Shown piece after piece: positions 7,314 to 38,039 of a stretch of DNA of 64,000 nt. The stretch spans positions 3,534-67,533 of the forward strand of contig JBBRPH010000020.1 in NCBI GenBank assembly GCA_038228295.1, written 5' to 3'. Every line of letters starts with the position of its first letter. The first letter of the stretch is position 1. Below the pieces are notes generated by a model. That model worked only from the letters and a program-made list of their open reading frames with translations, searched no databases and was not told the DNA's origin. The translations under genes were made by a program, and so were the position numbers. Source of the stretch: Chloroflexia bacterium (GTDB lineage: Bacteria > Chloroflexota > Chloroflexia > QHBQ01 > JAICKM01).

Positions 7314-7342
7314 TTGACAGCTCCTACTGCGCCTGCTATACT
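7314..7342 (+). promoter_or_regulatory. sigma70 promoter of the DUF485-actP operon
   Basis: TTGACA-17 bp-TATACT. Confidence 0.75.
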
Positions 7343-7421
7343 CTGCGCTTAATCGGAGGTCGCACCGCTACGACCTTTGCTGAGGCACTGGTAGGAGGAT
7401 CGATTCGCAGGAGGTAGCAAT

Positions 7422-7868
7422 ATGGCTGGCGCAAACGCAGGTCGCCCCGCCCGGCGGGACTTGACCCCCGTCGTGGGGGCTCCCACCGATGTTAGCCCCG
7501 TAGGGCGCAGCGGAGTCAAACCCGCACATGAACAGACCGCGCAGGAAGACCGCGATATGGCCGCCTGGGACGAGGTGGCCGCGATGACCGAGTTCCGGCA
7601 GTTGGTGGCCGCTAAGATCCGCTTTATTGTGCCCGCCACGATCTTTTTCCTGGTGTACTACCTGTTGTTGCCCCTGCTAGTGGGCCTCGCCCCCGATTTG
7701 ATGAAGACAAAAATTCTCGGTCAGGTCAACCTCGCCTATCTGTTCGCCCTCTCGCAGTTCATCATGGCCTGGATTTTGGCCTTCATCTACCTGCGGCAGG
7801 CCGGTGTGTTTGACGACATGGTGCGCGGCATCATCGCCAAGCTGCGCGCTGCACGGGGAGGGCAATAG
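7422..7868 (+). CDS. DUF485 membrane protein (ActP partner)
   Basis: [25 protein letters not shown]; directly upstream of actP. Confidence 0.88.
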
Positions 7869-7870
7869 CA

Positions 7871-9481
7871 ATGTCTATCGCGCTGATTATGTTCGTGATC
7901 TTTATCGCCATCACGCTGGGCATCACCTACTGGGCCGCCCGCCAGTCCACCAACTCCGCCGCCTTTTTCGCCGCCAACCGCCAACTGACCGCTTGGCAAA
8001 ACGGCATCGCCGTGTCGGGCGACTATATGAGCGCGGCTTCGTTCCTGGGCATCGCCGGGCTGATCGCCTTCAACGGCTACGACGGCTTCATGTACTCAGT
8101 CGGCTTCCTGGTCGCCTATCTGACCGTGCTGCTGATCGTGGCCGAACCGCTGCGCAACGCCGGCAAATATACGATGGCCGATGTGCTGGCCTACCGGTTA
8201 CAGGCCCGCCCGGTGCGTTCGATGGCCGCTCTTAGCACGCTCACGGTCAGCACCTTCTATATGATCGCCCAGATGATCGGTGCGGGCACGTTGGTGACGC
8301 TGTTGCTTAGTTCATCGGGTATCAAGTATGAAGCGGCCGTGATCGGCGTGGGCATCCTGATGATCGTCTACGTGGTGTTCGGGGGAATGCTGGCGACCAC
8401 CTGGGTGCAGATCATCAAAGCGATCCTGTTGATGGGCGGCACGATCATCCTCAGCATCATGGTCCTCGGCAACTACGGGTTCGACCTGGGCCGCTTCTTC
8501 GACGCGGTGAGCCATGTGCAATACACCGACGCGACGACCCACGCCCTCGTAACCAAAAACTTCTTGGAGCCGGGCCTGCTCTACAAGGGTGGCTTTTTCA
8601 CGAAGCCTTACGGCGGGTTGGACTTGCTCTCGCTGGGGTTGGCCCTCGTGCTGGGCACGGCGGGGCTGCCGCATATCCTGGTGCGCTTCTATACCGTGCC
8701 TAATGCGAAGACGGCCCGCATTAGCATCGTCTGGGCGATGCTGATCATCGGCTTCTTCTATATTCTGACCACCTTCCTCGGCTGGGGTGCGGCGACGCTG
8801 GTGGGCCGTGATTTTATCGCCAAGAACGGCGGCACCAACATGGCCGCGCCGCTATTGGCGCAAAAGCTGGGCGGCGAGGTGTTTTTCGCCTTCATCTCGG
8901 CCATTGCCTTCGCCACCATCCTGGCGGTGGTCGCTGGGTTGACGATCAGCGCCTCCACGTCTTTCGCGCACGACTTCTGGACCAACGTGGTGCGTCGGGG
9001 TAAGGAGCAGACGAAAGATGAAGAGGTGCGCGTTGCCCGCATTGCCGCCTTCGTGGTCGGCTTAGTCTCGATTGCGTTGGCGCTGGCCTTGAAGGATCTT
9101 AATGTGGCCTTCTTGGTCGGCCTAGCCTTCGCGGTCGCGGCTTCGGCCAACCTGCCGGTGATCGTCTTCTCGCTGTTCTGGAAGCGGTTTAACACCAACG
9201 GAGCGGTGATCGGCATTGCCACCGGGCTGATTGCTTCGCTGGTGCTGATTATCATCAGCCCCAGCATCATGGGCATTGACCCGGCGGGCACGGCCGGCGC
9301 AGCGCGCCACCTGATTCAGGCGAATGCGATCTTCCCGCTCAACAATCCAGGCATCGTCAGCATCCCGCTCGGCTTCCTGGGCGCCTATCTCGGCACGCTG
9401 CTGGGCCGCGAACCCAGCGCCGAAGCCCAATTCACCGAACTGAATGTGCGCGCTAACACGGGCCTGGGCGCCGAAGTCTAG
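7871..9481 (+). CDS. actP: Cation/acetate symporter (SSS family)
   Basis: [46 protein letters not shown]. Confidence 0.92.
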
Positions 9482-25809: not shown

Positions 25810-27150
25810 TTACCGCTTGTTGCCGTTGGCGATGGTTGAAACGACCGTGCCGTTCGCATCGAGCAATTCGGCAGCATCACCTTTATTGCTCCAGATCGCT
25901 CTGCCTGACCCGAAGGAGAAGCCGCCGCTCTCGGTGTGGTGTTCATTGGTGTAGATGCGGATGCGCTTGCCGGCTTGCAAGGTAAAGCCCTGCCAGGTGA
26001 ACTCCTCCCCGCCGTATACGTCACGCAACACCCACCCGTTCAGACTAACGGGACCATTAGTGACGTTATGCAACTCCACGTATTCGTCCGGCTCATTGGG
26101 ATTGATGGCCCCATTGTAGAAGATGTCGGCGATTTCCACCGGGCCGCCGCTAGTAGTTTGACCACCGCTGCTGCCCTGGGCCGGACGTGGGGTGCGCGTG
26201 GGCGGCGTATTCGGCTCCGGCGTTTCGACCAGCGCAGGCGGCAGGTAGGGGTCTTGGGTCGGGACAGCATCCGCGCCGCCGGCGGTGGTGGTGGTTGAAG
26301 CGCGTCCCGTGTCGAGCGCGACCCAGCTGTTGCCGCGTTGCACATCGAAGGCGATGATCGGGTGGATCTCCCAGATGGTGCCGCGGGTTTTGCCCACCTG
26401 GTCAGGGTGTTCCTGATCCATCAGCAGCCAGCCACTGATGCGGACACGGGTACGGCCGTCTACCAGCGGATTGACGCGCGCGAAAGCCCAGCCGGGGTGC
26501 TGCGCGCGCACACGCGGTGTGATTTCGACGACAACCGACTGGGAGCGGTCTTTGGCCGGGCCGTCTACGATCCAGAGATGATTATCTACATCATCGGCGG
26601 CGTGGCAGTTGCAGGACTCCGGCCCCTCTTGCTTGGCCCCGGCTAGGTAGCCTTCCACCTGTATCGGGATGCCTTCGGTGCGAGCCACTGTTGCCGCATC
26701 GGCGGACGACCAGCTAGCGCGGCGCTGCCGCTCAATTGCTTTGGGCCAGGGCAACGCCAGCAAATCGGCGATCTGCACGGGATACCAGGGCGCCGAATCA
26801 ATACGATCTTTACGAACGTTGAGACCGGGATCGCCACCGTCGCCGGTGGATGGACAGCCCTGGTAGGTATTGGACGGCGGCTGCGGGCGGGAGGCGCTGA
26901 GGGGGATGCCTCCCTGCGGGTTGGGCGCGACGTTGCCCCCCAGGTTGCCGCCGATGCCGCGACTGCTGTCGCTGCTGCCGCCCCCCCCGGTGTCGGCGGT
27001 GGGGTTCTGTACAAAGCCACTGCCCCCCGAATTGCCTACCGGATTGGGGGCTACCGGCGTGAGGTTGGGGTCGCTGCAACTGGCAACTCCGCCGGCCAGC
27101 GTCGTAAGAAGTAGCAGCAGGAGCAGCGCGGCTCCCAGGCGTGCGTTCAT
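25810..27150 (-). CDS. Lipoprotein with central OB-fold-like domain and C-terminal lamin-tail domain
   Basis: Lipobox VASC; LTD motifs DEYVELHN..LNGWVL..IWSNKGDAAEL. Confidence 0.8.
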   Translation of the reverse strand: MNARLGAALLLLLLLTTLAGGVASCSDPNLTPVAPNPVGNSGGSGFVQNPTADTGGGGSSDSSRGIGGNLGGNVAPNPQGGIPLSASRPQPPSNTYQGCPSTGDGGDPGLNVRKDRIDSAPWYPVQIADLLALPWPKAIERQRRASWSSADAATVARTEGIPIQVEGYLAGAKQEGPESCNCHAADDVDNHLWIVDGPAKDRSQSVVVEITPRVRAQHPGWAFARVNPLVDGRTRVRISGWLLMDQEHPDQVGKTRGTIWEIHPIIAFDVQRGNSWVALDTGRASTTTTAGGADAVPTQDPYLPPALVETPEPNTPPTRTPRPAQGSSGGQTTSGGPVEIADIFYNGAINPNEPDEYVELHNVTNGPVSLNGWVLRDVYGGEEFTWQGFTLQAGKRIRIYTNEHHTESGGFSFGSGRAIWSNKGDAAELLDANGTVVSTIANGNKR

Positions 27151-27475
27151 AAGAGATGATCCTTTATAGTATTCGGCTCCAAGCACCGCAGGGTATGCCT
27201 ACATCCACGGGCGGTCAGTGTGCGTCACCACGCTGCTCGCCTCTATTGTAACATAAATTGCGGTGCAACCGACAACATTGCGTGTTACGTTTCGCCGACC
27301 CACCGACACACTGACGATTGCCCGTAACTACGGTTCACTATGCGCATTTCTCTAACGGGTGGACTGCGCAGCGGCAGTCGGTTACACACCGCCTTGCTGC
27401 TGCCGGCCGGTTCTACTTAAACAGACCCGGCAGATTATTGGGTGAGACAATATCGAATACAGCATTATAAGGAGG

Positions 27476-28405
27476 ATGGTCATGAAAGTACAGGGACAGC
27501 GCCGCATCGCCGGTTTGGCGTTAGGCTTGCTGGTGAGCATGAGCTTGGCGGCTTGCGGTGGTGATGCAGCAACCTCAACCGCTGTACCGGCCGCCGTGCC
27601 AACTGCGACAACGGTGGCGGCTGCGCCGACTGACACAACCGCATCGGCGGCCCCCACCGCTACAGCGGCTATGGTTGCGCCGACCGCGACGACGGCGCCG
27701 GCTGCGCCGACTGATACGGCTATGGTTGCGCCGACCGCGACGACGGCGCCGGCTGCGCCGACTGATACGGCCATGTCTGCCGCCCCGACCGCGACGACGG
27801 CCACCAGCGGCGGCACGGGCGGTGTGCCCCTCAGTGGCGATGCCGGTCTGCTGCAACAGGCCGTGGCCGGAATGCGCGACCTCAAGAGCTACCACATGGA
27901 CATCGCGTCGGAGGTGGGTGGTCAGAAGACGCAGACGGGTGTAGATGTAGATGTGGCAAACAAAGGTGTGAAAATGACGAGTACCGTGGGCGCCTATAGC
28001 AGCGTCGTCCTAGTGATCGGCGACAAATCTTGGATTAGTGCCGATGGCGGCAAGACTTACACGGTCAGTCCGACCGGCGCATCGATGGGCAGTGCGTTCG
28101 ACGGCTTTATTAATATGTGGAAAAATAGCTCGATGGGCGGGGCGGGCACACCGATCCCGGACATCAAGGCGGGTACTCCGGCTACTGAGCAGATCGACGG
28201 CACCGATACCAAGCACCTGACCCTGGACAGCAAAGCCTTCAGCGGCACGACCGGAGGTACCGTTGATATGTGGGTGACGACCGGCGCGCAGCCGCGCATT
28301 CGGCAAATGAAGTCCGCCGTTACCGCGAGCGGGCAAGCCGTTACGTCCACTATCAAGTGGAGCAAGTTCGACGAAGACCTAGGCATCAAGGCACCGGCCA
28401 AATAG
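27476..28405 (+). CDS. LppX/LprAFG-like lipoprotein with Ala/Pro/Thr linker
   Basis: Lipobox LAAC; LKSYHMD, EQIDGTDTKH, IKWSKFDE..IKAP. Confidence 0.75.
   Translation: MVMKVQGQRRIAGLALGLLVSMSLAACGGDAATSTAVPAAVPTATTVAAAPTDTTASAAPTATAAMVAPTATTAPAAPTDTAMVAPTATTAPAAPTDTAMSAAPTATTATSGGTGGVPLSGDAGLLQQAVAGMRDLKSYHMDIASEVGGQKTQTGVDVDVANKGVKMTSTVGAYSSVVLVIGDKSWISADGGKTYTVSPTGASMGSAFDGFINMWKNSSMGGAGTPIPDIKAGTPATEQIDGTDTKHLTLDSKAFSGTTGGTVDMWVTTGAQPRIRQMKSAVTASGQAVTSTIKWSKFDEDLGIKAPAK
27666..27800 (+). repeat. 51-bp tandem repeat (MVAPTATTAPAAPTDTA) in the lipoprotein linker
   Basis: Identical units starting at ATG 27671 and 27722, degenerate third copy. Confidence 0.85.
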
Positions 28406-28455
28406 CCGGCTAGGATGTAGTGTGGCACCTGTCGCGCCGCACTGGTCTAACAACC

Positions 28456-28501
28456 ATCGCCGCGCAGCTACGGAGACTTGGACTCCGTAGCTGCGCGGCG
28501 G
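28456..28501. terminator. Hairpin between convergent genes
   Basis: cgccgcgcagctacggag-acttgga-ctccgtagctgcgcggcg. Confidence 0.75.
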
Positions 28502-28525
28502 GATCTATTAGCTTTCAGACCGCTC

Positions 28526-31429
28526 TCAGCACGCCGTATCCGGCACTTCATTCTCGTCGGCTTCAGCTAATGCTATCGCCGCGTCTAGCGACAGGTTTGC
28601 GCCGGTGGTCCAGGCAGTGGCCCAGGCAGTCGGCGATAGCGCGGCTTCGGCTGCGCGCCGACTGTGCTCGTAGGGTGCTTGGTCGGCAGGGTCGAGCGTG
28701 GTGCCGATAGCGGCCAGCAACGTTTCGGCAGCGGCAAACAGCATGGCGGCGCGGGTCGGGTAACTCGCCGCGACCGCCACTGCACCCAAACCACTCAGGC
28801 ACCAGGCGACGGCGACTCGGCGACCCGTCTCACCGGCCAGTCGTAACGCCTCGCGGAAAAGCGGGTCGGCTTTAGCAAGATCGCCGACTTGCACGGCCAC
28901 GCAGCCCAGGTTGTAGAGCGCTGTGGTGATGCCGTAGCCGTTGCCCAATTGCCGATGCAAGATCAGCGCTTGCTCATAGAAGACGGCGGCTTGCGGATAG
29001 TCGCTGGTGTAGCGTGCCACTTCGCCGAGGCTATTGAGCAGCCAAGCTGTGGTGTCGGGGGTACCCATGCTCGTATTGAGTGCTAGGCTCTCCTCGAAGA
29101 GGGCACGGGCAGCCGGATAGTCACCTTCGGCCAGTGCGGTGCGCCCCAGATGATAGAGACACGTCGTCACACTTCGCCCGTCACCGAGACTACGCACCAG
29201 GCTTAGGCTTTCTTCGAGCCGGGCGCGCGCTTCCGATAAGCGCCCCTGCGCCAACGCGGTGCGGCCCACCTGGAAGAGTGCGGAGGCGACGGCAACACGA
29301 TCGTTCAATGCCCGTGTCAGGCTTAGAGCTTCGTCGGCCAGTGTATAGGCTTCGGCGAGCGCCCCCTGGATGCGGACTTCTTCGGCCAGCGCATCAAGTG
29401 TCGCCGCCAACGCCGGGTGGTTGCCCAGGCTGCGCCAGAGCGTGGCGCTTTCCTCCAGATAGGCGCGGGCCGTGACCGAGTCGGTAGTCAGGGAGCCGAG
29501 GCCAAAGAGGGCTTGGGCGCGTGCCGCCGGATAGGCGGTCGCTTCCGGCGCAGCCAGCATGGTTTCGAGCCAGGCGCGGCCGGCTCGCCACTGCCCGCGC
29601 AACAGCCAGAAGCGCCACAGCGCGCCGGCTAACCGCAGTCCGGCTTCCCGGCCCACAGGATCACCCGCGCACCATTCGAGCGCGGCGCACAAGTTATCGT
29701 CCTCGCTTTGTAGCCGCCGCAATACGCTATCCTGGCCCGCGCTGCGGAGTTGCGGTGCGGTGGCTTCGGCCAACTGCACATACCAGTCGCGATGCCGGCG
29801 ACGGACGGCCGCTGTTTCGCCGGTTTCGAAGAGACGTTCACGCGCGTATTGGTGGATCGTCTCCTGATAATAATAGCGGGTCTGGTCCGGTTGGTCCTCA
29901 ACCAATACCAGCGACTTATTGACCAGTTGCTGTAGCCCATCCAGCACTTCGTATACGTCCAGTTCATCGCCCGCACAAACGGCCTCGGCGGCTTCGAGCG
30001 TCCACCCGCCGATGAACACAGCGAGACGATGGAGGAGAGTGCGCTCTTGGGTACCGAGTAGATCATAGCTCCAGTCAATCAGCGCACGGAGGGTTTGCTG
30101 TCGCGGCAAGGCGGTGCGGCTGCCGCCGGTGAGCAGGCGAAAGCGATCGTCGAGCCGCGCGGCGATACCTTCGACCGGCAGCACCTTGACGCGGGCGGCG
30201 GCAAGTTCAAGTGCCAACGGAATGCCGTCGAGGCGACGGCAAATGTGCAGCACCGCCGGCGCATTGGCCTCGGTAAGCACAAACCCCGGCTGCACCGCCT
30301 GGGCACGCTCAATAAATAAGCGTATCGCTTCGTAGCGCAGCAGCATACCGATCGCCGGCCGCTCCGGCTGTGCGCCGGTGTTGCGCTGGGGCAGGGCCAA
30401 CGACGGCACCCGTAGGGTGGTCTCACCGGCAATGCCCAGTGCTTCGCGGCTGCTCGCGAGGATGCGCACGGTCGGGCAGTTGCGGAGTACGGCCTCGGCC
30501 AGTTCGGCGCAGGCGGTAATCAGGTGTTCGCAGTTATCGAGCAACAGCAGCAGATTTTTGTCGCGCAGCCTTTGGGTGAGCGTGGTCAGCCATGCTACGC
30601 CCAGTTCTTCGCGCACGCCCACGGCGCTGGCGACGGTCGCCGCAACCAGCGCGGGATCCGTTAGCGCGGCCAATTCGATGAACCAGACTCCGTCCGAGAA
30701 GTTGTCGCTTAGTTCGGCGGCCACTTGCAAGCTCAGGCGCGTCTTGCCGGTGCCGCCCGGTCCGGTGAGGGTGAGCAAGCGAGTGGTGCCGAGCAGCCGC
30801 TGCACGTCAGCCATTTCGCGGTCGCGCCCAATAAAGCTGGTGAGTTGTAACGGCAGATTGTGGGCGAAGGCTTCGAGCGAACGCAACGGCGGGAACTCCG
30901 CCGGCAGATCGCTGCTGACCAGTTGGAAGACGCGCTCCGGACGGATAAGGTCTTTGAGCCGTTGCTCGCCCAGATCGCGCAGGCCCACGCCGGGCGGCAG
31001 CGCCGCGCCTAGTGCCTCTTGCGTGCTAAGGGACAGCAGCACCTGTCCGCCGTGGCCCGCCGCCATGATCCGCGCCACCCGGTTGAGCGCCGGGCCGACA
31101 TAGTCGCCGTCGCGCACGGTAGCCACGCCGGTGTGCAGTCCCATACGGACGCGCAAAGGGCCGGTCGCCCCCCAGGCTCCGGTGGTCAGATCGCGCTGGG
31201 CGGTGATGGCGGCCGCCAACGCATCCGCTGCGTCCGTGAAGGCGGCGGAAAAGGCATCGCCGCCTGTCTTGAACACACTCCCCCTATGGCTCTCGATAGC
31301 GGCGCGCAGGATGGCATCGTGACGCGCCAGGGCCACGGCCATCTCCTGAGGGTGTTGCTCCCACAGCCGCGTGCTACCCTCAATGTCGGTGAACAGAAAC
31401 GTAATCAGCGGCGCTGCATCTTCGGTCAT
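28526..31429 (-). CDS. Adenylate/guanylate cyclase - STAND (NB-ARC-like) ATPase - TPR protein (STAND-1)
   Basis: FLFTDIEGST, KTGGDAF, LNRVARI; Walker A GPGGTGKT, Walker B LLLLDNCE; [12 protein letters not shown]; C-terminal TPRs. Confidence 0.93.
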   Translation of the reverse strand: MTEDAAPLITFLFTDIEGSTRLWEQHPQEMAVALARHDAILRAAIESHRGSVFKTGGDAFSAAFTDAADALAAAITAQRDLTTGAWGATGPLRVRMGLHTGVATVRDGDYVGPALNRVARIMAAGHGGQVLLSLSTQEALGAALPPGVGLRDLGEQRLKDLIRPERVFQLVSSDLPAEFPPLRSLEAFAHNLPLQLTSFIGRDREMADVQRLLGTTRLLTLTGPGGTGKTRLSLQVAAELSDNFSDGVWFIELAALTDPALVAATVASAVGVREELGVAWLTTLTQRLRDKNLLLLLDNCEHLITACAELAEAVLRNCPTVRILASSREALGIAGETTLRVPSLALPQRNTGAQPERPAIGMLLRYEAIRLFIERAQAVQPGFVLTEANAPAVLHICRRLDGIPLALELAAARVKVLPVEGIAARLDDRFRLLTGGSRTALPRQQTLRALIDWSYDLLGTQERTLLHRLAVFIGGWTLEAAEAVCAGDELDVYEVLDGLQQLVNKSLVLVEDQPDQTRYYYQETIHQYARERLFETGETAAVRRRHRDWYVQLAEATAPQLRSAGQDSVLRRLQSEDDNLCAALEWCAGDPVGREAGLRLAGALWRFWLLRGQWRAGRAWLETMLAAPEATAYPAARAQALFGLGSLTTDSVTARAYLEESATLWRSLGNHPALAATLDALAEEVRIQGALAEAYTLADEALSLTRALNDRVAVASALFQVGRTALAQGRLSEARARLEESLSLVRSLGDGRSVTTCLYHLGRTALAEGDYPAARALFEESLALNTSMGTPDTTAWLLNSLGEVARYTSDYPQAAVFYEQALILHRQLGNGYGITTALYNLGCVAVQVGDLAKADPLFREALRLAGETGRRVAVAWCLSGLGAVAVAASYPTRAAMLFAAAETLLAAIGTTLDPADQAPYEHSRRAAEAALSPTAWATAWTTGANLSLDAAIALAEADENEVPDTAC

Positions 31430-31435
31430 GTGGCT

Positions 31436-31444
31436 ATTATAGCA
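31436..31444 (-). promoter_or_regulatory. Extended -10 element, probable leaderless promoter of STAND-1
   Basis: Minus strand TGCTATAAT-agccac-ATG, no SD. Confidence 0.6.
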
Positions 31445-31473
31445 TCTTCCGTGCGCGAACAACGGAGCGGGCA

Positions 31474-31506
31474 GCAAAAAACCTCCACCCAATGGTGGAG
31501 GTTTGC
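31474..31506 (-). terminator. Intrinsic terminator of the Gly-rich peptide gene
   Basis: Minus strand aaacctccacc-attg-ggtggaggtttttt, about 22 bp after the stop codon. Confidence 0.85.
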
Positions 31507-31528
31507 GATTCTGTAGCGTGGCGGCCGG

Positions 31529-31870
31529 TTAGGCCATGCCACCGCCGCTGCTGCCGTTGGCTCCCCCCATGCTGCCGCCGCCGCTGCTGCCGCCGACGAT
31601 CACGGTCCCCCCCATGCTGCCACCGCCGCTGCTGCCGTTGGCTCCCCCCATGCTGCCACCGCCGCTGCTGCCGCCGACGATCACGGTCCCCCCCATGCTG
31701 CCACCGCCGCTGCTGCCGTTCATGCTGCCGCCGCCGCTGCTGCCACCCACAACCACGGAGTTACCACCGGTATGAGTGACCGCTACCTGATTCCCATGTG
31801 CGCCAATAGCTCCTAAAGCCATTGCTACAGTGATGGATACAGCCCATTTTTTAACCGATGCGATCTTCAT
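31529..31870 (-). CDS. Small secreted Gly/Ser-rich repeat peptide precursor (six GSSGGG cores)
   Basis: Signal-peptide-like MKIASVKKWAVSITVAMALGAIGAHG; SD GAGGG; own promoter and terminator. Confidence 0.85.
   Translation of the reverse strand: MKIASVKKWAVSITVAMALGAIGAHGNQVAVTHTGGNSVVVGGSSGGGSMNGSSGGGSMGGTVIVGGSSGGGSMGGANGSSGGGSMGGTVIVGGSSGGGSMGGANGSSGGGMA
31532..31760 (-). repeat. Tandem repeats encoding (G/N)GSSGGGSM, including an 81-bp higher-order duplication
   Basis: ccaccgccgctgctgccgttggctccccccatgctgcc at 31539 and 31620. Confidence 0.9.
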
Positions 31871-31965
31871 GGATGTGTTCCCTCTCTACTAGTTGCTGTA
31901 ATCAATAACGATTAACTATTCACGCTGGTGGAGTAACAATCAACTCGGTACTCGCAACCATCGTC

Positions 31966-31994
31966 ATTGTAGCAGAAGCATCGGCTGGAGTCAA
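31966..31994 (-). promoter_or_regulatory. sigma70 promoter of the peptide gene
   Basis: Minus strand TTGACT-17 bp-TACAAT with TGn extension. Confidence 0.75.
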
Positions 31995-32010
31995 TAGGCG
32001 GATTCACTAT

Positions 32011-33357
32011 TTATCTATTACCGGCACCAAAATGTTGTTGCAAAACTTTTGCCACTAATCTGGGGCGAAACAGTATTCCAGGGGGTTTGAGGAGTTGCGT
32101 GACAGCGAATAGGATACCGTGCGCTTTCGCATCGTGCGCGGCTAACATGGTTAGGCGATCCAGATACCAGTGTAGCAGTGGCGACCATTGCGGCTTCTCG
32201 CCCTGTGTTGTGCGATAGCGAAAGTCACGGTTGGTCGCCAGTAGCCACGGAGCCGTATTGTTTTTGGCTAGTTCTTGTTGGAAGTACAAGGCGAAGCCCG
32301 CCGGATCGCGGTGTGTGGTCGTTTGGCTGTAGGTGTGTAAGCATCTGTCCAATACTTTGGCGCTCTGGGCTGCAACGGTAATGCCTTGCGAGTGCTGCGG
32401 ATTGAGGATACACGCCGCATCGCCTAATACGATAAACTGTTCGGGTCGGCTTGATAGCGATTCATAATGACGTAAGCGATTTTCTGTATGCTGATAGCCC
32501 CAAACAGGCGAAATCGGTACCGCAGTGTCTATAAACTGGTATGCCTGGGAACTCGGCAGGCTACGTACAAAATCTAGTAGCGGCTCTTCCTCTAACGGTG
32601 GGTAATCCCCTGCTACTCCGGTGATGGTGGCAAGCCAACGGTTTCCCTCCACACGGGCAATCACACAACCCCTGCTAGCGGTTTCCGTTAGCATCACTTG
32701 CCAATCAGGTGTGCGATCACTTGGGCAAGTGTAATAGCGGCTGACGTAACGCACCAATGAGTTGACAGTGGTCTCTTGGGGTGGCGTGTACCCGAGTGCC
32801 TCTAACCACTTAGGGGCGCGGGAGTAACGGCCACCGGCATCTATTATTAGGTCAGCGTACAGGCTTTCCTCTGCTGCTGCATTTTGACTCCGCCCGCGTG
32901 TCTGCACTCCTATGACAACTGTGTGCGATTCGTCGGCTAGGAGGCTAGTCACCTCTTGTTGTTGCAAGCAGCGGATCTGTGGAGAAGCGAGTACGCGCCG
33001 GCGAATGCTCCACTCCAGTAAATCTCGGCTGTAGTAATGGACATTGTAATTGGTGCCGAAGTATGAACCTGATGCGACAGGGGTTAAAGGCGCAATAGTG
33101 CCGGACCAATCTACTACGGTAGCCCCCGCGTTGAGCAGGTCTGCTTCGATACCTGGAAAAAGCTGTTCTAGGATCAGACGGCCGCCCATAAGGAGCTGAT
33201 GCCGGTGCCGAGCATGAGGTGTACCTTTACGCGGCTGAGGTTCTGCGGGTAGAAAGTCCCGCTCGACAATCGTCACCCGATCAAAGTGATTACAGAGAAC
33301 ATGAGCCGCCAATAAGCCCGCAATACTGCCGCCAATGACGAGCGCGTGGGTGGGCAA
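32011..33357 (-). CDS. FAD-dependent oxidoreductase (monooxygenase/epoxidase-like)
   Basis: IGGSIAGL, VERD, DLIIDAGGR, LGDAACILNP..QGIT; lower GC than flanks. Confidence 0.85.
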   Translation of the reverse strand: MPTHALVIGGSIAGLLAAHVLCNHFDRVTIVERDFLPAEPQPRKGTPHARHRHQLLMGGRLILEQLFPGIEADLLNAGATVVDWSGTIAPLTPVASGSYFGTNYNVHYYSRDLLEWSIRRRVLASPQIRCLQQQEVTSLLADESHTVVIGVQTRGRSQNAAAEESLYADLIIDAGGRYSRAPKWLEALGYTPPQETTVNSLVRYVSRYYTCPSDRTPDWQVMLTETASRGCVIARVEGNRWLATITGVAGDYPPLEEEPLLDFVRSLPSSQAYQFIDTAVPISPVWGYQHTENRLRHYESLSSRPEQFIVLGDAACILNPQHSQGITVAAQSAKVLDRCLHTYSQTTTHRDPAGFALYFQQELAKNNTAPWLLATNRDFRYRTTQGEKPQWSPLLHWYLDRLTMLAAHDAKAHGILFAVTQLLKPPGILFRPRLVAKVLQQHFGAGNR

Positions 33358-33392
33358 AACTTACATCCCCTCTGTATAGGCTAGTTGTTTAA

Positions 33393-36158
33393 TCATTTGA
33401 TGAGTGACGCTAACGCTAATTCTAAAGCTTCCTGTAGGGACATTGCCTGCCCGGCGGTCCAAGCAGCTGTCCATTCGGTTTCATTAATCGCAGCCTGCAC
33501 CGCGGCGACATGGGGTGCGTAGGCACCGGCATCGGGGGGATCTAAGTGCGCGTTTATGGCTTGCAAAAGGCCATCTGTTGCTCCGCACAGCTGGGCAGCG
33601 TGAAGCCAATGGCTGCGTTTGGCAGCCACTCCGACTGCTGCCGCCCAGCACATAGCGATGCCTTCTTTGTTGCCCAACTGTTGATATAAGACCATACTCT
33701 CAGTAAATAAGTCTGCCGCTTTGTGGAAATCGCCTTGAGCCAAAGTAATTTGACCAAGGTTGTGTGAAGCTAAAGCCAATCCTGATCTATCCATACAATC
33801 AGTGTATATTCTTAACGCTGATTCTACAACATGGGTAGCGGGTATCAATTGGCCTTGTGCCCGTAGAGCCTCGCCTAAGTTAAGTGCGCTACTTGCAACT
33901 CCTTGCATATTATTTAGCATTCGCCGTAGTTGTAAACTTTCTTCTGCAAGTAATTGTGCGCTGTGGGCATCACCACGATTAAGCGCCAATATACTTAAAT
34001 TATCGAGTACACTAGCGACCCCCGGTTTATGATCTACGACACGATAGAGGGTCAAACTTTCTTCCAGTGCGTTCTTGGCCTCTGCAATGTCGCCCTGTCG
34101 CTGTGCTATCCAGCTAAGGTCCACTAGCGCGCGCGCCGTTGATTTGCGATCACCAATTTCACGGTACAGTTTCACACTAACCTCCAACTGTGTGTGCGCT
34201 TCGACGAAATCGCCTTGACCGGTTGCGAAGCGACCGGCTCCTTCTAGGGCTTTAGCGCGGGCTGCAGGCGTGGCGGGACCGGGGCGATCTAGCGCCGCAT
34301 CCAGCCAAGCGCGCCCTTCGATCCAGTAGCCACGGCGCAGCCAGAATGGTTGGAGCGCGCCGACGAGGCGTAGTTCGGCCTCGATGCCCGCTGGGTCGTC
34401 CTGGCACCATTCGAGGGCGGCGCGCAGATTGTCGTGTTCGAGTTCAAGGCGATCCAGCCATTGTACAGCTTGCTGCTCGCGGATTGGAGCTTCGGCTTCC
34501 TCGGCTAGGGCCAGGAACCAATCGCGGTGGCGAATGCGGACGGCGGCGGATTCGCCGGCTTCGGTCAAGCGGTCGCGGGCATACTGCCGGATCGTTTCGA
34601 GCAGGCTATAGCGTGGGCTGCCGTCGGGTATGGGTTCGACCAGCAGCGACTTGTTGATCAGCTGTTGGAGGCTGTCGGCACAGTTGCCGCTGACAGTCGT
34701 GTCTGTATCGGTCACGGCGGCAGCAGCCTCGGCAGTAAAGCCGCCCGCGAAGACCGAGAGGGCACGTAGTAGGCGACGTTCCGCGTCGGGTAGCAGATCA
34801 TAGCTCCAGTCAATCAGGGCACGCAGGGTTTGCTGGCGGGGTAGGGCGGTGCGACTGCCGCCGGTGAGCAGGCGAAAGCGATCATCGAGCCGGGCAGCGA
34901 TGCCGTCCACCGGCAGCAGGCGTACACGGGCGGCAGCCAATTCAATGGCGAGTGGGATGCCGTCGAGCCGGCGACAGATCTGGGCTACAGCAGGCGCGTT
35001 ATCGGCGGTGAGCCGGAAATGGGGCTGCGCCGCCTGCACGCGATCTAGAAACAAGCGCACCGATTCGACCGTAGCTAACGCGCTAGGGTCGGTGGCCCCG
35101 GTGGGCGGTAGGCTCAGTGACGGCACGCGGTAGACAGCTTCGTTGGGCAGGCTCAACGGTTCGCGGCTGCTCGCCAGCACCGTCACTCCCGGACAGGCGG
35201 CCCGTAACTGCTCGACTAGAGCCGCGCAGGCGGTCAGCACGTGTTCGCAGTTATCAAGCAGCAGCAGCGTGGTCTGCGGCTGAAGATGGGCGATCAGACT
35301 CGCCTCCAACGGCCGTCCGGGTTCCCCTCGCACCCCCAGTACCGTTGCCACCGCTTGAGCCAGCAGCGCCGGGTCGGTCAAAGCCGCTAGTTCGACGACC
35401 CAAACCCCGGTGGGAAAGCGGTCGAGCGATTGGGCAGCGGCTTGCAAAGCGAGGCGCGTCTTGCCGGTGCCGCCGGAGCCGGTGAGCGTGACTAGGCGGC
35501 TCGTCGCCAGCAAGTGTAGCACGGTCGTCAGCGCCTCAGCGCGCCCAATAAAAGGGGTTAATTGGATCGGCAGATTATGCGCGGTGGCGGGCAAGGCGCG
35601 GAGCGGATCGGTTCGGTCAGGCAGGCCCGCGCCGATCAACTGGAATACTCGCTCCGGCTGTTCCAGGTCACGGAATCGCTGTTCTCCTAGGTCGCGCAGG
35701 GTCAAATCGGTCGGCAAGGCTGGGCCGAGCGCGGCAGCGGTTGCGCCGGTGAGCAGGATCTGGTCGCCGTGTCCGGCCCCCAGCAAGCGCGCGGTGCGAT
35801 TAAGCGCCGGGCCGAAAAAATCGCCGGCGCGCTGTTCAGCGGGGCCGCTGTGCAAGGCCATCACTACACCGGGCGGAGCCAGCCCATTATGCATATCCCA
35901 AGAGTGGGTGGCTAGTGCGCGCCCAGCGGCGGCCGCCGCCTGTACTGCCGCCGCCGGCGCAGCAAATACCGCGTAGACGGCACTGCCACTGCGCTTAAAG
36001 ATCGTGCCGCCCACCCCCTGCACCGCCTCGCGCATCAGCCGATCATAGTGGCCCAGGATGCGGCCCATCGTCGCGGGGTATTCTTCCCACAGGCGGACAT
36101 TGCCCACAATGTCGGCAAAGAGGAAAGTTAGGCCGGCGGGTGCGCTTGTTACGTCCAT
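33393..36158 (-). CDS. Cyclase-like - STAND ATPase - TPR protein (STAND-2)
   Basis: FLFADIVG, LNRTARL; GSGGTGKT; LLDNCE; LDGIPLAIELAA; TPRs. Confidence 0.93.
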   Translation of the reverse strand: MDVTSAPAGLTFLFADIVGNVRLWEEYPATMGRILGHYDRLMREAVQGVGGTIFKRSGSAVYAVFAAPAAAVQAAAAAGRALATHSWDMHNGLAPPGVVMALHSGPAEQRAGDFFGPALNRTARLLGAGHGDQILLTGATAAALGPALPTDLTLRDLGEQRFRDLEQPERVFQLIGAGLPDRTDPLRALPATAHNLPIQLTPFIGRAEALTTVLHLLATSRLVTLTGSGGTGKTRLALQAAAQSLDRFPTGVWVVELAALTDPALLAQAVATVLGVRGEPGRPLEASLIAHLQPQTTLLLLDNCEHVLTACAALVEQLRAACPGVTVLASSREPLSLPNEAVYRVPSLSLPPTGATDPSALATVESVRLFLDRVQAAQPHFRLTADNAPAVAQICRRLDGIPLAIELAAARVRLLPVDGIAARLDDRFRLLTGGSRTALPRQQTLRALIDWSYDLLPDAERRLLRALSVFAGGFTAEAAAAVTDTDTTVSGNCADSLQQLINKSLLVEPIPDGSPRYSLLETIRQYARDRLTEAGESAAVRIRHRDWFLALAEEAEAPIREQQAVQWLDRLELEHDNLRAALEWCQDDPAGIEAELRLVGALQPFWLRRGYWIEGRAWLDAALDRPGPATPAARAKALEGAGRFATGQGDFVEAHTQLEVSVKLYREIGDRKSTARALVDLSWIAQRQGDIAEAKNALEESLTLYRVVDHKPGVASVLDNLSILALNRGDAHSAQLLAEESLQLRRMLNNMQGVASSALNLGEALRAQGQLIPATHVVESALRIYTDCMDRSGLALASHNLGQITLAQGDFHKAADLFTESMVLYQQLGNKEGIAMCWAAAVGVAAKRSHWLHAAQLCGATDGLLQAINAHLDPPDAGAYAPHVAAVQAAINETEWTAAWTAGQAMSLQEALELALASLIK

Positions 36159-36222
36159 AGGGAGTTAGCACCCATCTAAGCAAAAATCTATACGGCGCGC
36201 CGGCTACGTGCCTGCGGCTGCA

Positions 36223-37008
36223 TTATAGCATGGATTCGTTGCCGCGTGCGAGGTGGATATACATTTGCAGGTTGTAGTAGGCCATCGCCGTCGCCAGCAC
36301 TAGGCCGAGCGGCCCATCGCGCCAGCCCGCTAGTGTGATGAAACGCCGGCGGAACTCGCGCAACGGTTGCAGCACAAAGTTCTGCGGTTTGGCGCGCACC
36401 CCGGCGGTCCGTAGGGCGCGCGCTTCGTAGGCAGCATAGGCGCGTTGCTTGGCGGTGAACCGGCTCCAGTGGCTATAGTTATAGTGGATCAACGGTTGCC
36501 GCAGATACGCCTGCCGGTCGGCGGGAATCTGCGCGATTTCATGCACAGTGCGTCCTTCGTCGTAGCGGGCCACAGTGCGCCGCAGCAGGCGTAGTTGGTG
36601 GTCGGGCCACCAGCCGGCGTGGCGCACCTCGTGGCCGAACATGAAGGTGCGCCGTGCCACCCAGTAGCCTGCGTATTCGCCCGGCTCCGCCAAAACCGCC
36701 CGGATCTCGCGCACCAGGGCGGGGGTCACGCGCTCATCGGGGTCAAGGAACAGCACCCAATCGCCGTGTGCGTGGTCCAACCCGCGATTGCGCTGGGCGG
36801 AAAAGTTGACGAAGGGCACCCGATAGACGGCAGCCGTATGGTGGCGGGCTACCACTTCGACCGCCGGCGTGGCGAGTCCGTCCAGAATTACCACTAATTC
36901 ACAGTCCGGCGACGCGATCAGGTCGGCCGCTGCGGCTAGGCAGGCAGCCAGGTGATCGGCTTCGTCCAGCGCCAGGATGACGACCGACAGGTGGGGGGCG
37001 GCGTTCAT
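36223..37008 (-). CDS. Glycosyltransferase family 2
   Basis: LSVVILALDE, FSAQRNRG, FLDPDE, WPDHQLRL, VHE. Confidence 0.9.
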   Translation of the reverse strand: MNAAPHLSVVILALDEADHLAACLAAAADLIASPDCELVVILDGLATPAVEVVARHHTAAVYRVPFVNFSAQRNRGLDHAHGDWVLFLDPDERVTPALVREIRAVLAEPGEYAGYWVARRTFMFGHEVRHAGWWPDHQLRLLRRTVARYDEGRTVHEIAQIPADRQAYLRQPLIHYNYSHWSRFTAKQRAYAAYEARALRTAGVRAKPQNFVLQPLREFRRRFITLAGWRDGPLGLVLATAMAYYNLQMYIHLARGNESML

Positions 37009-38039
37009 AGGCGGAACACCGCGCCGTAGGTGCGCCGCAGGGCACGCGCTTCGGCGGCGGCCAGCCGTCCGCGCGCCTGGTCCCAAGCCACGGCCAGCGC
37101 TTTGCGGATCATACCGAGTCGCACCAGCACGCGCACCGCCCGGCTTACTGCGCGGCTCCGATGCTTGGCAAAGTAGCGATAGCGCGCCCGCCAGAGTTCC
37201 ACATACATTTGCCCGGCGCGTTGGCGGGTGCTTTGCCCGGCCAGGTGGACGATCTCAGCGGCGGGCACCTGCCAGATTTCCCAGCCGGCGGCGCGGATAC
37301 GGCGACACCAGTCCACTTCTTCGGCATACATGAAAAAGCCCTCATCGAAGCCACCTACTTCATCCACTACCGCCCGCCGCACCAGCATCGCCGCGCCGAG
37401 TGGGTGGTCGATCTGAAACGGCGCAGCGGTGGACCGCTGTTCGGCGGGATAGCGGCCGTTGAGTGGGCTTTCGAGCAAGCGTGGGTGTAGTGGGAAGAGG
37501 TCTAGCGCGACTTGGACTGCACCGGGGAAGCGGAAGGCGTTGCGCTGCAACGATCCGTCGCTGTAGCGTAGGCGCGGCGCGATCAGCCCGGCGGCGGGAC
37601 GGCTCTCGCCGAACGCGAGCAGGCGATCCAGCGCGCCGGGCTGCACCACCGTGTCGGGATTGAGCAGCAGCAGCCACGCTCCCCGCGCCACGGCCATCCC
37701 CCGGTTGTTAGCGCGGCCAAAGCCGAGATTGACCGGGCCGGCGATCAGGCGCACCTGCGGCCACGCCGCCCGTAGCCACGCCGCCGTGCCGTCGGTCGAG
37801 GCGTTGTCCACGACGATGATTTCCGTGCGCCGTAGGTCGTGGGCCGTGCGCTGTGAATCGGTAGGCTCAGTTACGGCTATCGGTGTGCTGCTTTGTGCTG
37901 CTCTATGGGGCGTAGCTGCGCTCCTGTCACCGCCTACGGCCCACGGCGCAGGGCTCACGGACCGTAGGCAGGCATCCAGCAGCGTGCGGCTGTTCCAAGT
38001 GACGATTATGATAGAGAGGTAGATGGGCGGGTTGTTCAC
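37005..38039 (-). CDS. Glycosyltransferase family 2 (rhamnosyltransferase-like)
   Basis: SIIIVTWN, VVDNASTDG, NLGFGRANN, LLNPD, FFMYAEEVD; start uncertain. Confidence 0.9.
   Translation of the reverse strand: MNNPPIYLSIIIVTWNSRTLLDACLRSVSPAPWAVGGDRSAATPHRAAQSSTPIAVTEPTDSQRTAHDLRRTEIIVVDNASTDGTAAWLRAAWPQVRLIAGPVNLGFGRANNRGMAVARGAWLLLLNPDTVVQPGALDRLLAFGESRPAAGLIAPRLRYSDGSLQRNAFRFPGAVQVALDLFPLHPRLLESPLNGRYPAEQRSTAAPFQIDHPLGAAMLVRRAVVDEVGGFDEGFFMYAEEVDWCRRIRAAGWEIWQVPAAEIVHLAGQSTRQRAGQMYVELWRARYRYFAKHRSRAVSRAVRVLVRLGMIRKALAVAWDQARGRLAAAEARALRRTYGAVFRL

Follow-up and report, generated by a model that had tools for sequence, protein, structure and literature searches.

A sharply bounded low-GC block with saturated silent sites at a tandem STAND ATPase locus of a Chloroflexia bacterium

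The agr, comQXP and comCD loci of Firmicutes are pherotype loci with exchanged specificity cassettes, and the order cyclase, ATPase and TPR is known as the Rv0386-type architecture. The locus considered here lies in a stretch of 64,000 nucleotides (the window; contig JBBRPH010000020.1, positions 3,534 to 67,533) from the genome of a Chloroflexia bacterium and consists of two genes for STAND ATPases with C-terminal TPRs, designated STAND-1 and STAND-2, a small gene for a putative secreted protein and a gene for a predicted flavoenzyme, all on the minus strand. A sequence-only reading of this DNA had drawn attention to a tract of low guanine plus cytosine (GC) content that begins inside STAND-2, and had proposed that recombination replaced the TPR sensor, the flavoenzyme and a peptide signal with its promoter as one unit. 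The present analysis showed that the tract is the low-GC part of a discrete block, extending from the ATPase-to-TPR junction of STAND-2 to the end of the small gene, in which silent-site similarity to the orthologous DNA of a congener has been erased, while the flanks on both sides retain it. We consider it about an even call that this is an old block that diverged mostly in place; the data do not show a wholesale swap.

The pherotype loci (compare PMC2751782) also have a hyper-divergent block that encodes a secreted product as well as the region of a receptor that recognises the ligand, and that is set between conserved DNA. The divergence boundary likewise lies in frame inside the receptor gene, and deep divergence of a block with sharp edges was encountered here as well. 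However, the receptor in those systems is a membrane histidine kinase, whereas STAND-2 is a predicted cytoplasmic STAND ATPase with a cyclase domain, the secreted product here is a 113-residue Gly/Ser-repeat protein, and the congener lacks the putative modifier. Moreover, conflict between the trees of the block and its flanks was tested for and not encountered, and neither exchange of alleles nor polymorphism within the species was observed. RRNPP-type TPR receptors such as Rap-Phr (PMC5199041) resemble the locus in that a cytoplasmic TPR sensor adjoins the gene of a small secreted product and the pair diverges fast, but here the TPRs are carried on a P-loop STAND ATPase, the small protein is long and repetitive, and an RRNPP fold or output domain was not seen, though no test was aimed at one. 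The hypervariable repeat sensors of STAND/NLR proteins (PMC4986451) share a C-terminal sensor that outpaces the nucleotide-binding part and the shuffling of modules, seen here in two metagenome proteins; the fast block described here differs in that it includes a downstream gene, has low GC and silent saturation, and has edges conserved between species. The multidomain class III cyclases of Actinobacteria (PMC2447327) have the same N-terminal cyclase-homology domain, P-loop ATPase and C-terminal TPRs, but the genes here form a tandem pair and the cyclase domain of STAND-2 falls below the Pfam cut-off, with GSA in place of GDA. The locus can be described as a fast-diverging STAND sensor segment, a known phenomenon, that stands out by its composition and its silent sites and to which a gene for a putative secreted protein is linked. 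The features that define the block and its flanks are as follows.

28526 to 31429, minus strand: STAND-1, class III cyclase, P-loop STAND ATPase and TPRs; conserved flank of the block
31476 to 31503, minus strand: intrinsic terminator of the small gene, consisting of a GC-rich hairpin and a T6 run; conserved, and marks where the divergent block ends on the left
31529 to 31870, minus strand: small protein of 113 residues, with an N-terminus resembling a signal peptide and then Gly/Ser-rich repeats built on TV(I/V)VG cores; within the divergent block
31966 to 31994, minus strand: sigma-70-type promoter of the small gene (TTGACT, 17 nucleotides, TG, TACAAT)
33393 to 36158, minus strand: STAND-2, 921 residues
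33393 to 34295, minus strand: STAND-2 residues 622-921, the part with the TPR sensor; poor in GC and saturated at silent sites relative to the congener
34296 to 36158, minus strand: STAND-2 residues 1-621, an apparently degenerate cyclase-like domain and a P-loop STAND ATPase; conserved right flank

A two-change-point fit to positions 29000-37000 placed the low-GC segment at 31759-34210 (log-likelihood gain 71), with a GC of 0.516 compared to 0.660 in the left flank and 0.656 in the right flank. The hand counts made in the sequence-only reading (24/60, 23/60, 26/60 and 42/60) were all reproduced exactly, and the tract is real; in the genome of the bacterium (G000; 5.68 Mb in 177 contigs, GC 0.633, completeness 89.75%) a GC of 0.53 or less was found in 0.94% of the 10,739 windows of 2 kb, and the tract falls within this lowest 1%. 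The change point at 34210 corresponds to about residue 650 of STAND-2. The claim that the shift occurs near the ATPase-to-TPR boundary with the frame intact was also borne out. GC at third codon positions (GC3) is 0.65-0.78 up to about residue 630 of STAND-2, falls to 0.28-0.33 at residues 691-810 and is 0.53-0.55 at the C-terminus, and the reading frame continues undisturbed across the drop. Of 11 paralogous open reading frames (ORFs) found in G000, one shorter than 700 residues was dropped; among the remaining ten the C-terminal drop is confined to STAND-2, the other nine having a GC3 of 0.68-0.77. Within the tract GC3 is heterogeneous (~0.3, ~0.53 and ~0.4-0.47 by part), which disagrees with a single uniform swapped unit. 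In all, G000 holds 45 regions of at least 2 kb with a GC of 0.54 or less, the STAND tract being one of these.

The comparison set comprised 40 relatives, 41 genomes with G000. The orthologous locus was found in only one of the 40, an unpublished metagenome bin of the same genus (G006), and all DNA-level comparisons of the locus rest on this genome alone. Its contig C411 has the same order and orientation of genes, an LTD-domain protein, a 308-residue protein, STAND-1, a small Gly/Ser-repeat protein and STAND-2. The STAND-2 proteins of the two genomes align without gaps, and that of G006 is identical to P0124 of the protein collection.

The proportion of silent differences (pS, Nei-Gojobori) between the two genomes was 0.48-0.51 in all parts of STAND-1 and in residues 100-640 of STAND-2, and 0.84, that is saturated, in residues 641-921; the corrected silent divergence (dS) of the flanks is about 0.8. 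A composition-aware test, which took the fraction of conserved residues, other than Met and Trp, that are encoded by the same codon in both genomes and compared it with 500 within-residue codon shuffles, gave an excess of 0.18-0.35 (z 3.5-8.1) in nine of nine flanking segments or genes, with values of 0.24-0.35 in all five segments of STAND-1 and 0.18-0.28 in residues 1-621 of STAND-2. The excess was 0.03 (z 0.7) in the TPR half of STAND-2 and 0.00 in the small gene, over 55 columns where the repeats make the alignment uncertain. The flanking gene hyp309, with a protein identity of 65%, has diverged like the TPR half, yet it retained an excess of 0.19 (z 3.8). The change point in codon identity was located at residues 621/622 (support interval 615-626), with a value of 0.595 before and 0.342 after, and none of 500 permutations reached its gain in likelihood. 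Since silent-site similarity is lost in the TPR half and the small gene and kept in the flanks, the TPR sensor, the spacer and the small gene form one hyper-divergent block. Its start lies in frame where the ATPase part of STAND-2 meets the TPRs and its end at the stop codon of the small gene and the conserved terminator, and its history or rate differs from that of the flanks.

The block is not confined to G000. In G006 a low-GC segment occupies positions 7331-8320 of the locus (L011), with a GC of 0.54 compared to 0.70, and the GC edge inside STAND-2 lies 271.7 codons from the C-terminus in G000 and 270.3 codons in G006, a difference of less than two codons. The GC3 of the TPR half in G006 is 0.45-0.55, compared to 0.72-0.93 in most of its ATPase part. 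The STAND-2 orthogroup in the protein collection has seven members (P0001 and P0124-P0129) with identities of 53-68% in the TPR half, the next match being at most 41%; among the relatives, the nearest TPR half was that of G006 at 68% and the next best did not exceed 41%. The combined share of F, Y, M, I, N and K at residues 691-840 is 0.15-0.21 in seven of the seven orthologues, compared to 0.12 in the same region of STAND-1, and is 0.08-0.12 in the ATPase halves of all eight proteins. Because the GC boundary is at the same codon in G006 and AT-rich residues are present in all seven orthologues, the tract is old, and the idea of a recent replacement in this genome had to be abandoned. A practical conclusion is that low GC in part of a gene does not have to signal recent import; the drop seen here predates the split of two species.

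In the reading that we prefer, at roughly even confidence, the locus carries an old, sharply bounded and fast-diverging block that diverged mostly in place. Starting at about residues 621-650 of STAND-2, where the TPRs begin, the block would take in the promoter and extend as far as the stop codon of the small gene, between well conserved flanks, the cyclase/ATPase part of STAND-2 on one side and the terminator and STAND-1 on the other. It would already have been present in the common ancestor of G000 and G006, with the same edges and an AT-shifted make-up, and the divergence since then would have occurred mostly in place, at silent and replacement sites about two to three times faster than in the flanks. 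The block appears to have escaped whatever holds GC3 near 0.75 elsewhere in G000. A candidate cause is that a segment too diverged to recombine would undergo no homologous recombination and, as a consequence, no GC-biased gene conversion. In the lineage of G000 the block additionally carries a 1.4-kb stretch with the gene of a MonCI/Lsd18-like flavin monooxygenase.

Several observations weigh against this reading, 1) orthologous DNA is available from one other genome, too few to give a direction to the GC3 change or to the gain or loss of the flavoenzyme, 2) the G006 contig belongs to a metagenome bin and its contiguity was taken as given, 3) a back-of-envelope model of relaxed GC pressure gives a silent divergence about 1.4 times that of the flanks, while arithmetic on the silent-site figures gives at least 1.6 times with a point estimate of about 2.7, so that relaxed GC pressure alone is too small and extra mutation, directional change in composition or an older split of the block is needed, 4) GC3 at residues 726-805 is 0.25-0.28 here compared to 0.50-0.53 in G006, which is below the value expected from simple amelioration from a shared ancestor and is accounted for by none of the four explanations considered, 5) the other nine paralogues and the TPR-rich STAND-1 have no comparable drop, so that fast evolution of TPRs as such fails to explain the composition and 6) the mechanism proposed for the AT drift is one that we infer.

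The exchange of cassettes is a tentative alternative, clearly less probable than divergence in place. It supposes that alleles of the block (the TPR sensor with or without the flavoenzyme, the promoter and the small gene), older than the split of G000 and G006, were moved between lineages by homologous recombination, with crossovers in the conserved ATPase part and at the terminator or STAND-1, and that G000 and G006 carry different ones. The sharp in-frame change in silent divergence at residues 621/622 is consistent with such crossovers, as is the limitation of silent saturation to the block when the flanks, including the equally diverged hyp309, keep their signal. Gene content and the repeat unit of the small protein also differ between the two genomes, and among three apparent classes of STAND-2 (P0001; P0125; P0124, P0126 and P0127) the divergence of the TPR half is nearly constant at 0.30-0.38, that of the ATPase half being 0.12-0.21. 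However, TPR divergence scales with ATPase divergence across pairs, the ratio of the two being about 1.4-2.8 in every pair of orthologues; the change point in protein identity fell at residues 617-667 in 8 of 11 pairs.

The trees of the two halves also argue against exchange. They were constructed with 21 rows, the window's protein, six orthologues, STAND-1 from both genomes, eight paralogues from G000 that have 700 residues or more and four distant matches, from residues 181-640 (ATPase half) and 641-921 (TPR half). Both trees group the window's protein with P0124-P0127 (support 99 for the ATPase half and 96 for the TPR half) with P0128 as sister (100 and 100), and the approximately unbiased (AU) test on the TPR half did not reject the topology of the ATPase half (p 0.64). 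The window's gene therefore shows no tree conflict, and the sequence-only reading had itself named congruent trees of the two halves as part of the outcome that would speak against a swap. Alignment to relatives, which it had also suggested, located the breakpoint relative to G006 but gave no alternative allele; a STAND-2-like ATPase half joined to a different TPR half was not found in the 40 relatives, where the nearest proteins were paralogues, for example one in genome G002 (L003) whose identity is 62% over the ATPase half and 33% over the TPR half. A search of genome contigs with P0001 returned, among the matches listed (at least 79 loci), only paralogues with identities of at most 51%, and in a search of metagenome contigs with P0128 the best identity was 55%, the contig of P0128 itself not being among the matches. 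In addition, the core of the promoter is conserved. The sequence occurs in one sequencing run only, probably that of the source sample; no RNA run was listed among the holders of the stretch. Part of the original proposal thus stands, in that sensor and small gene belong to a discrete block with its silent similarity erased, but the trees argue against the swap.

A true mosaic of modules was found elsewhere in the family, which lends the exchange of cassettes some support. The metagenome proteins P0128 and P0129 are 41% identical before residue 519 (P0001 numbering) and 73% identical after it, and the AU test rejected their pairing in the ATPase half (p 0.037), although the group tested was named after the tree had been seen. 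Judged from this mosaic, a sensor module has been exchanged between STAND ATPase backbones in the family.

It is unlikely that the tract is an ancient foreign mosaic, in which the TPR module and downstream DNA of a lower-GC donor entered the ancestor of the STAND-2 orthogroup and were incompletely ameliorated, the flavoenzyme arriving later by an independent transfer into the AT-rich spacer. Such an origin would agree with the confinement of AT-rich residues and low GC3 to the TPR half of the STAND-2 orthogroup, with the fall in identity between STAND-1 and STAND-2 from 60% over the ATPase half to 35% over the TPR half, and with the atypical composition and phylogeny of the flavoenzyme. Nevertheless, a common clade, and so a common origin, of the STAND-1 and STAND-2 TPR halves was not rejected by the AU test (p 0.52), and no lower-GC donor lineage was found, the nearest TPR matches outside the group being at most 41% identical. 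At the flank dS of about 0.8, moreover, GC3 would be expected to lie well above 0.28, and an event that preceded the split of G000 and G006 leaves the silent saturation between them unexplained.

A chance fluctuation or a chimeric metagenome contig can be dismissed as exceedingly improbable, since, even with an assembly in 177 contigs that is 89.75% complete and a comparison genome that is also a bin, the tract lies in the lowest 1% of windows with the likelihood gain of 71 given above, contigs made by an independent assembler from what is probably the source run span 33159-34678 with no differences and 31618-32904 with one difference at an even depth of about 6, thereby bridging both edges, the frame is continuous, the alignment to the orthologues is free of gaps and the same boundary is present in G006.

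Two other candidates were rejected. The composition is atypical, as for a recently acquired genomic island, but G006 also has the TPR and promoter part, within the same edges, and the lineage-specific portion of the tract is the flavoenzyme stretch only. A scan of 13 window ORFs lying between 25.8 and 42.2 kb detected no transposase or integrase domain, in agreement with the sequence-only reading; there was no tRNA gene between positions 15 and 50 kb, no direct or inverted repeats were found flanking the flavoenzyme gene, and a search of Rfam over 27000-37500 gave no matches at E ≤ 0.1. A diversity-generating retroelement as the cause of the fast divergence was set aside because no reverse-transcriptase match was found among the ORFs scanned and the divergence extends over about 900 nucleotides including silent sites.

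Both STAND proteins have the domains expected of P-loop STAND ATPases with TPRs, with matches to AAA_22, nSTAND-type, TPR_12, TPR_10 and TPR_MalT families. STAND-1 matched Guanylate_cyc (2e-10), AAA_22 and TPR_12 (7.9e-39) in Pfam; it is about 72-83% identical to its G006 orthologue and has a GC3 of 0.62-0.87. Its likely start is the ATG at 31429, although the mechanical ORF extends to 31492. The Walker A (GSGGTGKT) and Walker B (LLLLD) motifs are visible in the translation. In STAND-2, residues 1-621 are 79-82% identical to those of orthologues (AAA_22, 2.4e-6), and the protein evolves about twice as fast in the TPR part as in the ATPase part. The Guanylate_cyc score was 41.0 bits for STAND-1 and 17.9 bits (E 0.0024) for STAND-2, below the Pfam cut-off of 21.9 bits. 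The N-terminus of STAND-1 (31250-31429) carries the cyclase motifs TDIEGS...GDAF, and the corresponding motifs of STAND-2 (35979-36158) are ADIVGN...GSAV; GSA is common to the STAND-2-type orthologues in the consensus of an alignment of eight rows that included STAND-1. The aspartate of GDA, replaced in the GSA of STAND-2, is presumably a metal-binding residue of the cyclase. The cyclase domain of STAND-2 looks catalytically degenerate, and a tandem pair of an active and an inactive protein could form an asymmetric cyclase dimer.

From their domains, STAND-1 and STAND-2 are predicted to be cytoplasmic TPR-sensor ATPases with a cyclase-type output, and STAND-2 may work as the partner of STAND-1. 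The linkage and joint fast divergence of the STAND-2 TPRs and the small secreted protein suggest that they are a candidate co-diverging specificity pair. A more far-reaching scheme, to which we attach little probability, is that the block is the specificity determinant of a system for cell-cell or self-recognition, probably of Chloroflexota, in which a secreted Gly/Ser-repeat protein, tailored by the flavin monooxygenase in some lineages, would be recognised by the co-diverging TPRs of STAND-2 and signal through cyclic AMP made by a STAND-1/STAND-2 heterodimer, the block being kept diverse, recombinationally isolated and consequently AT-drifted, in the manner of a pherotype locus made from STAND cyclases. 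If the block does set specificity, the locus would provide a peptide- or protein-sensing pair of STAND cyclases in an uncultured, probably Chloroflexota, lineage, and also an example of a fast-diverging sensor segment that lost the GC bias of its genome inside fixed edges, with a bearing on the upkeep of high GC in bacteria; as it stands, it is a well-documented mosaic of composition and divergence with a putative function.

The remaining features of the tract and its surroundings are the flavoenzyme gene, the stretch that contains it and the promoter of STAND-1.

32011 to 33357, minus strand: predicted FAD-dependent monooxygenase of the group A flavoprotein type, 448 residues, 35 nucleotides downstream of the STAND-2 stop codon
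31997 to 33440, minus strand: stretch of 1444 nucleotides with the last ~15 STAND-2 codons, the flavoenzyme gene and its stop; the corresponding interval of G006 has only 57 nucleotides (blastn)
31427 to 31441, minus strand: -10 box of the STAND-1 promoter (TATAAT, 6 nucleotides, ATG), kept in G006

The flavoenzyme has a GxGxxG-type FAD-binding motif at the N-terminus and matched the Pfam family FAD_binding_3 (PF01494; 4.7e-7, 29.8 bits against a cut-off of 22). It matches the flavin-dependent polyether epoxidases MonCI (8.7e-60, residues 2-435) and Lsd18/LasC (9e-53) among sequences in the PDB (8t3p, 8up4 and others) over nearly its whole length. By these matches it is a MonCI/Lsd18-like group A flavoprotein monooxygenase, with an epoxidase activity that is only putative. 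Unlike MonCI and Lsd18, it has no polyketide genes nearby among the window ORFs scanned, and it belongs to a large uncharacterised clade with members from cyanobacteria and Chloroflexota at 44-50% identity. The protein search gave 1058 matches, the best other than itself at 66% (P0005) and the next at 50%. Among the 40 relatives the best match was 47%, and 15 of the 41 genomes had any match. In a tree of 78 rows, built from a subset of the matches and seven homologues from relatives, the flavoenzyme paired only with P0005, apart from the homologues of the relatives, which have a GC3 of 0.67-0.92; its own GC3 of 0.535 is among the lowest 29 of 1801 long coding-like ORFs.

No flavoenzyme gene was detected at the G006 locus, either in the ORF list of the contig or by blastn. 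The DNA homology between the two genomes ends about 45 nucleotides before the STAND-2 stop codon, and the flavoenzyme gene is, to judge from the alignment, a clean insertion or deletion of 1.4 kb between the end of STAND-2 and the -35 box of the small gene. Horizontal gain in this lineage is somewhat the likelier course compared to loss in G006. A search for short TPR fragments beside P0005 gave 11 matches with a best identity of 38%, so that an old link between flavoenzyme and STAND-2 was neither supported nor disproved, and the C-terminal tails of STAND-2 vary among orthologues and are consequently not diagnostic of gain or loss. The seven homologues fetched from relatives were in unrelated contexts, a Gly/Ser-rich ORF adjoining none of the seven and a STAND TPR gene being near one. 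The block also differs in gene content, the flavoenzyme being present here and missing in G006, but the enzyme is not a fixed partner, and the notion of a constant, co-varying modifier fails on the same evidence. No support was obtained for the flavoenzyme as a modifier of the small protein. In two genomes of a related genus (L018, G015:C85, and L019, G033:C8) a flavoenzyme homologue of 37% identity and a STAND TPR gene lie no more than about 2.5 kb apart; this proximity may be due to chance, given the dozens of such STAND genes in each genome.

Two to three promoter-like sites were noted at 33821-33936 (minus strand), in the most AT-rich coding part of STAND-2 and about 460-580 nucleotides upstream of the flavoenzyme start. 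They have no counterpart in G006 and were taken as by-products of AT-richness. Upstream of STAND-1, the TATAAT located 6 nucleotides ahead of the ATG suggests that its mRNA is leaderless. The STAND-1 promoter and the hairpin of the terminator are almost identical in G006; the terminator was seen by reading the sequence and was not listed by a simple terminator scan.

The promoter of the small gene was said to have been replaced, but its -35/-10 core is orthologous in the two genomes, the G006 promoter having TTGACA, 17 nucleotides and TATGAT, also with TG. Nor is the product a peptide of the agr or ComX type; a Gly/Ser-repeat protein of 113 residues with a signal-peptide-like N-terminus is unlike the agr and ComX precursors. 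The small protein matched no family in Pfam or NCBIfam and is 50% identical to its G006 counterpart, with a different repeat unit. When the small protein was compared with G000 by tblastn, low-complexity Gly/Ser matches swamped the result. A second stretch coding for Gly/Ser repeats was observed in G000 at C1:106357-106734; over 73-95 residues its product is 54-63% identical to the small protein, and it does not adjoin the STAND paralogues found on C1. Within the small gene itself, two units of 81 nucleotides (31537-31698) are 99% identical, so that the Gly/Ser repeats may have been duplicated recently within the gene or may evolve in concert.

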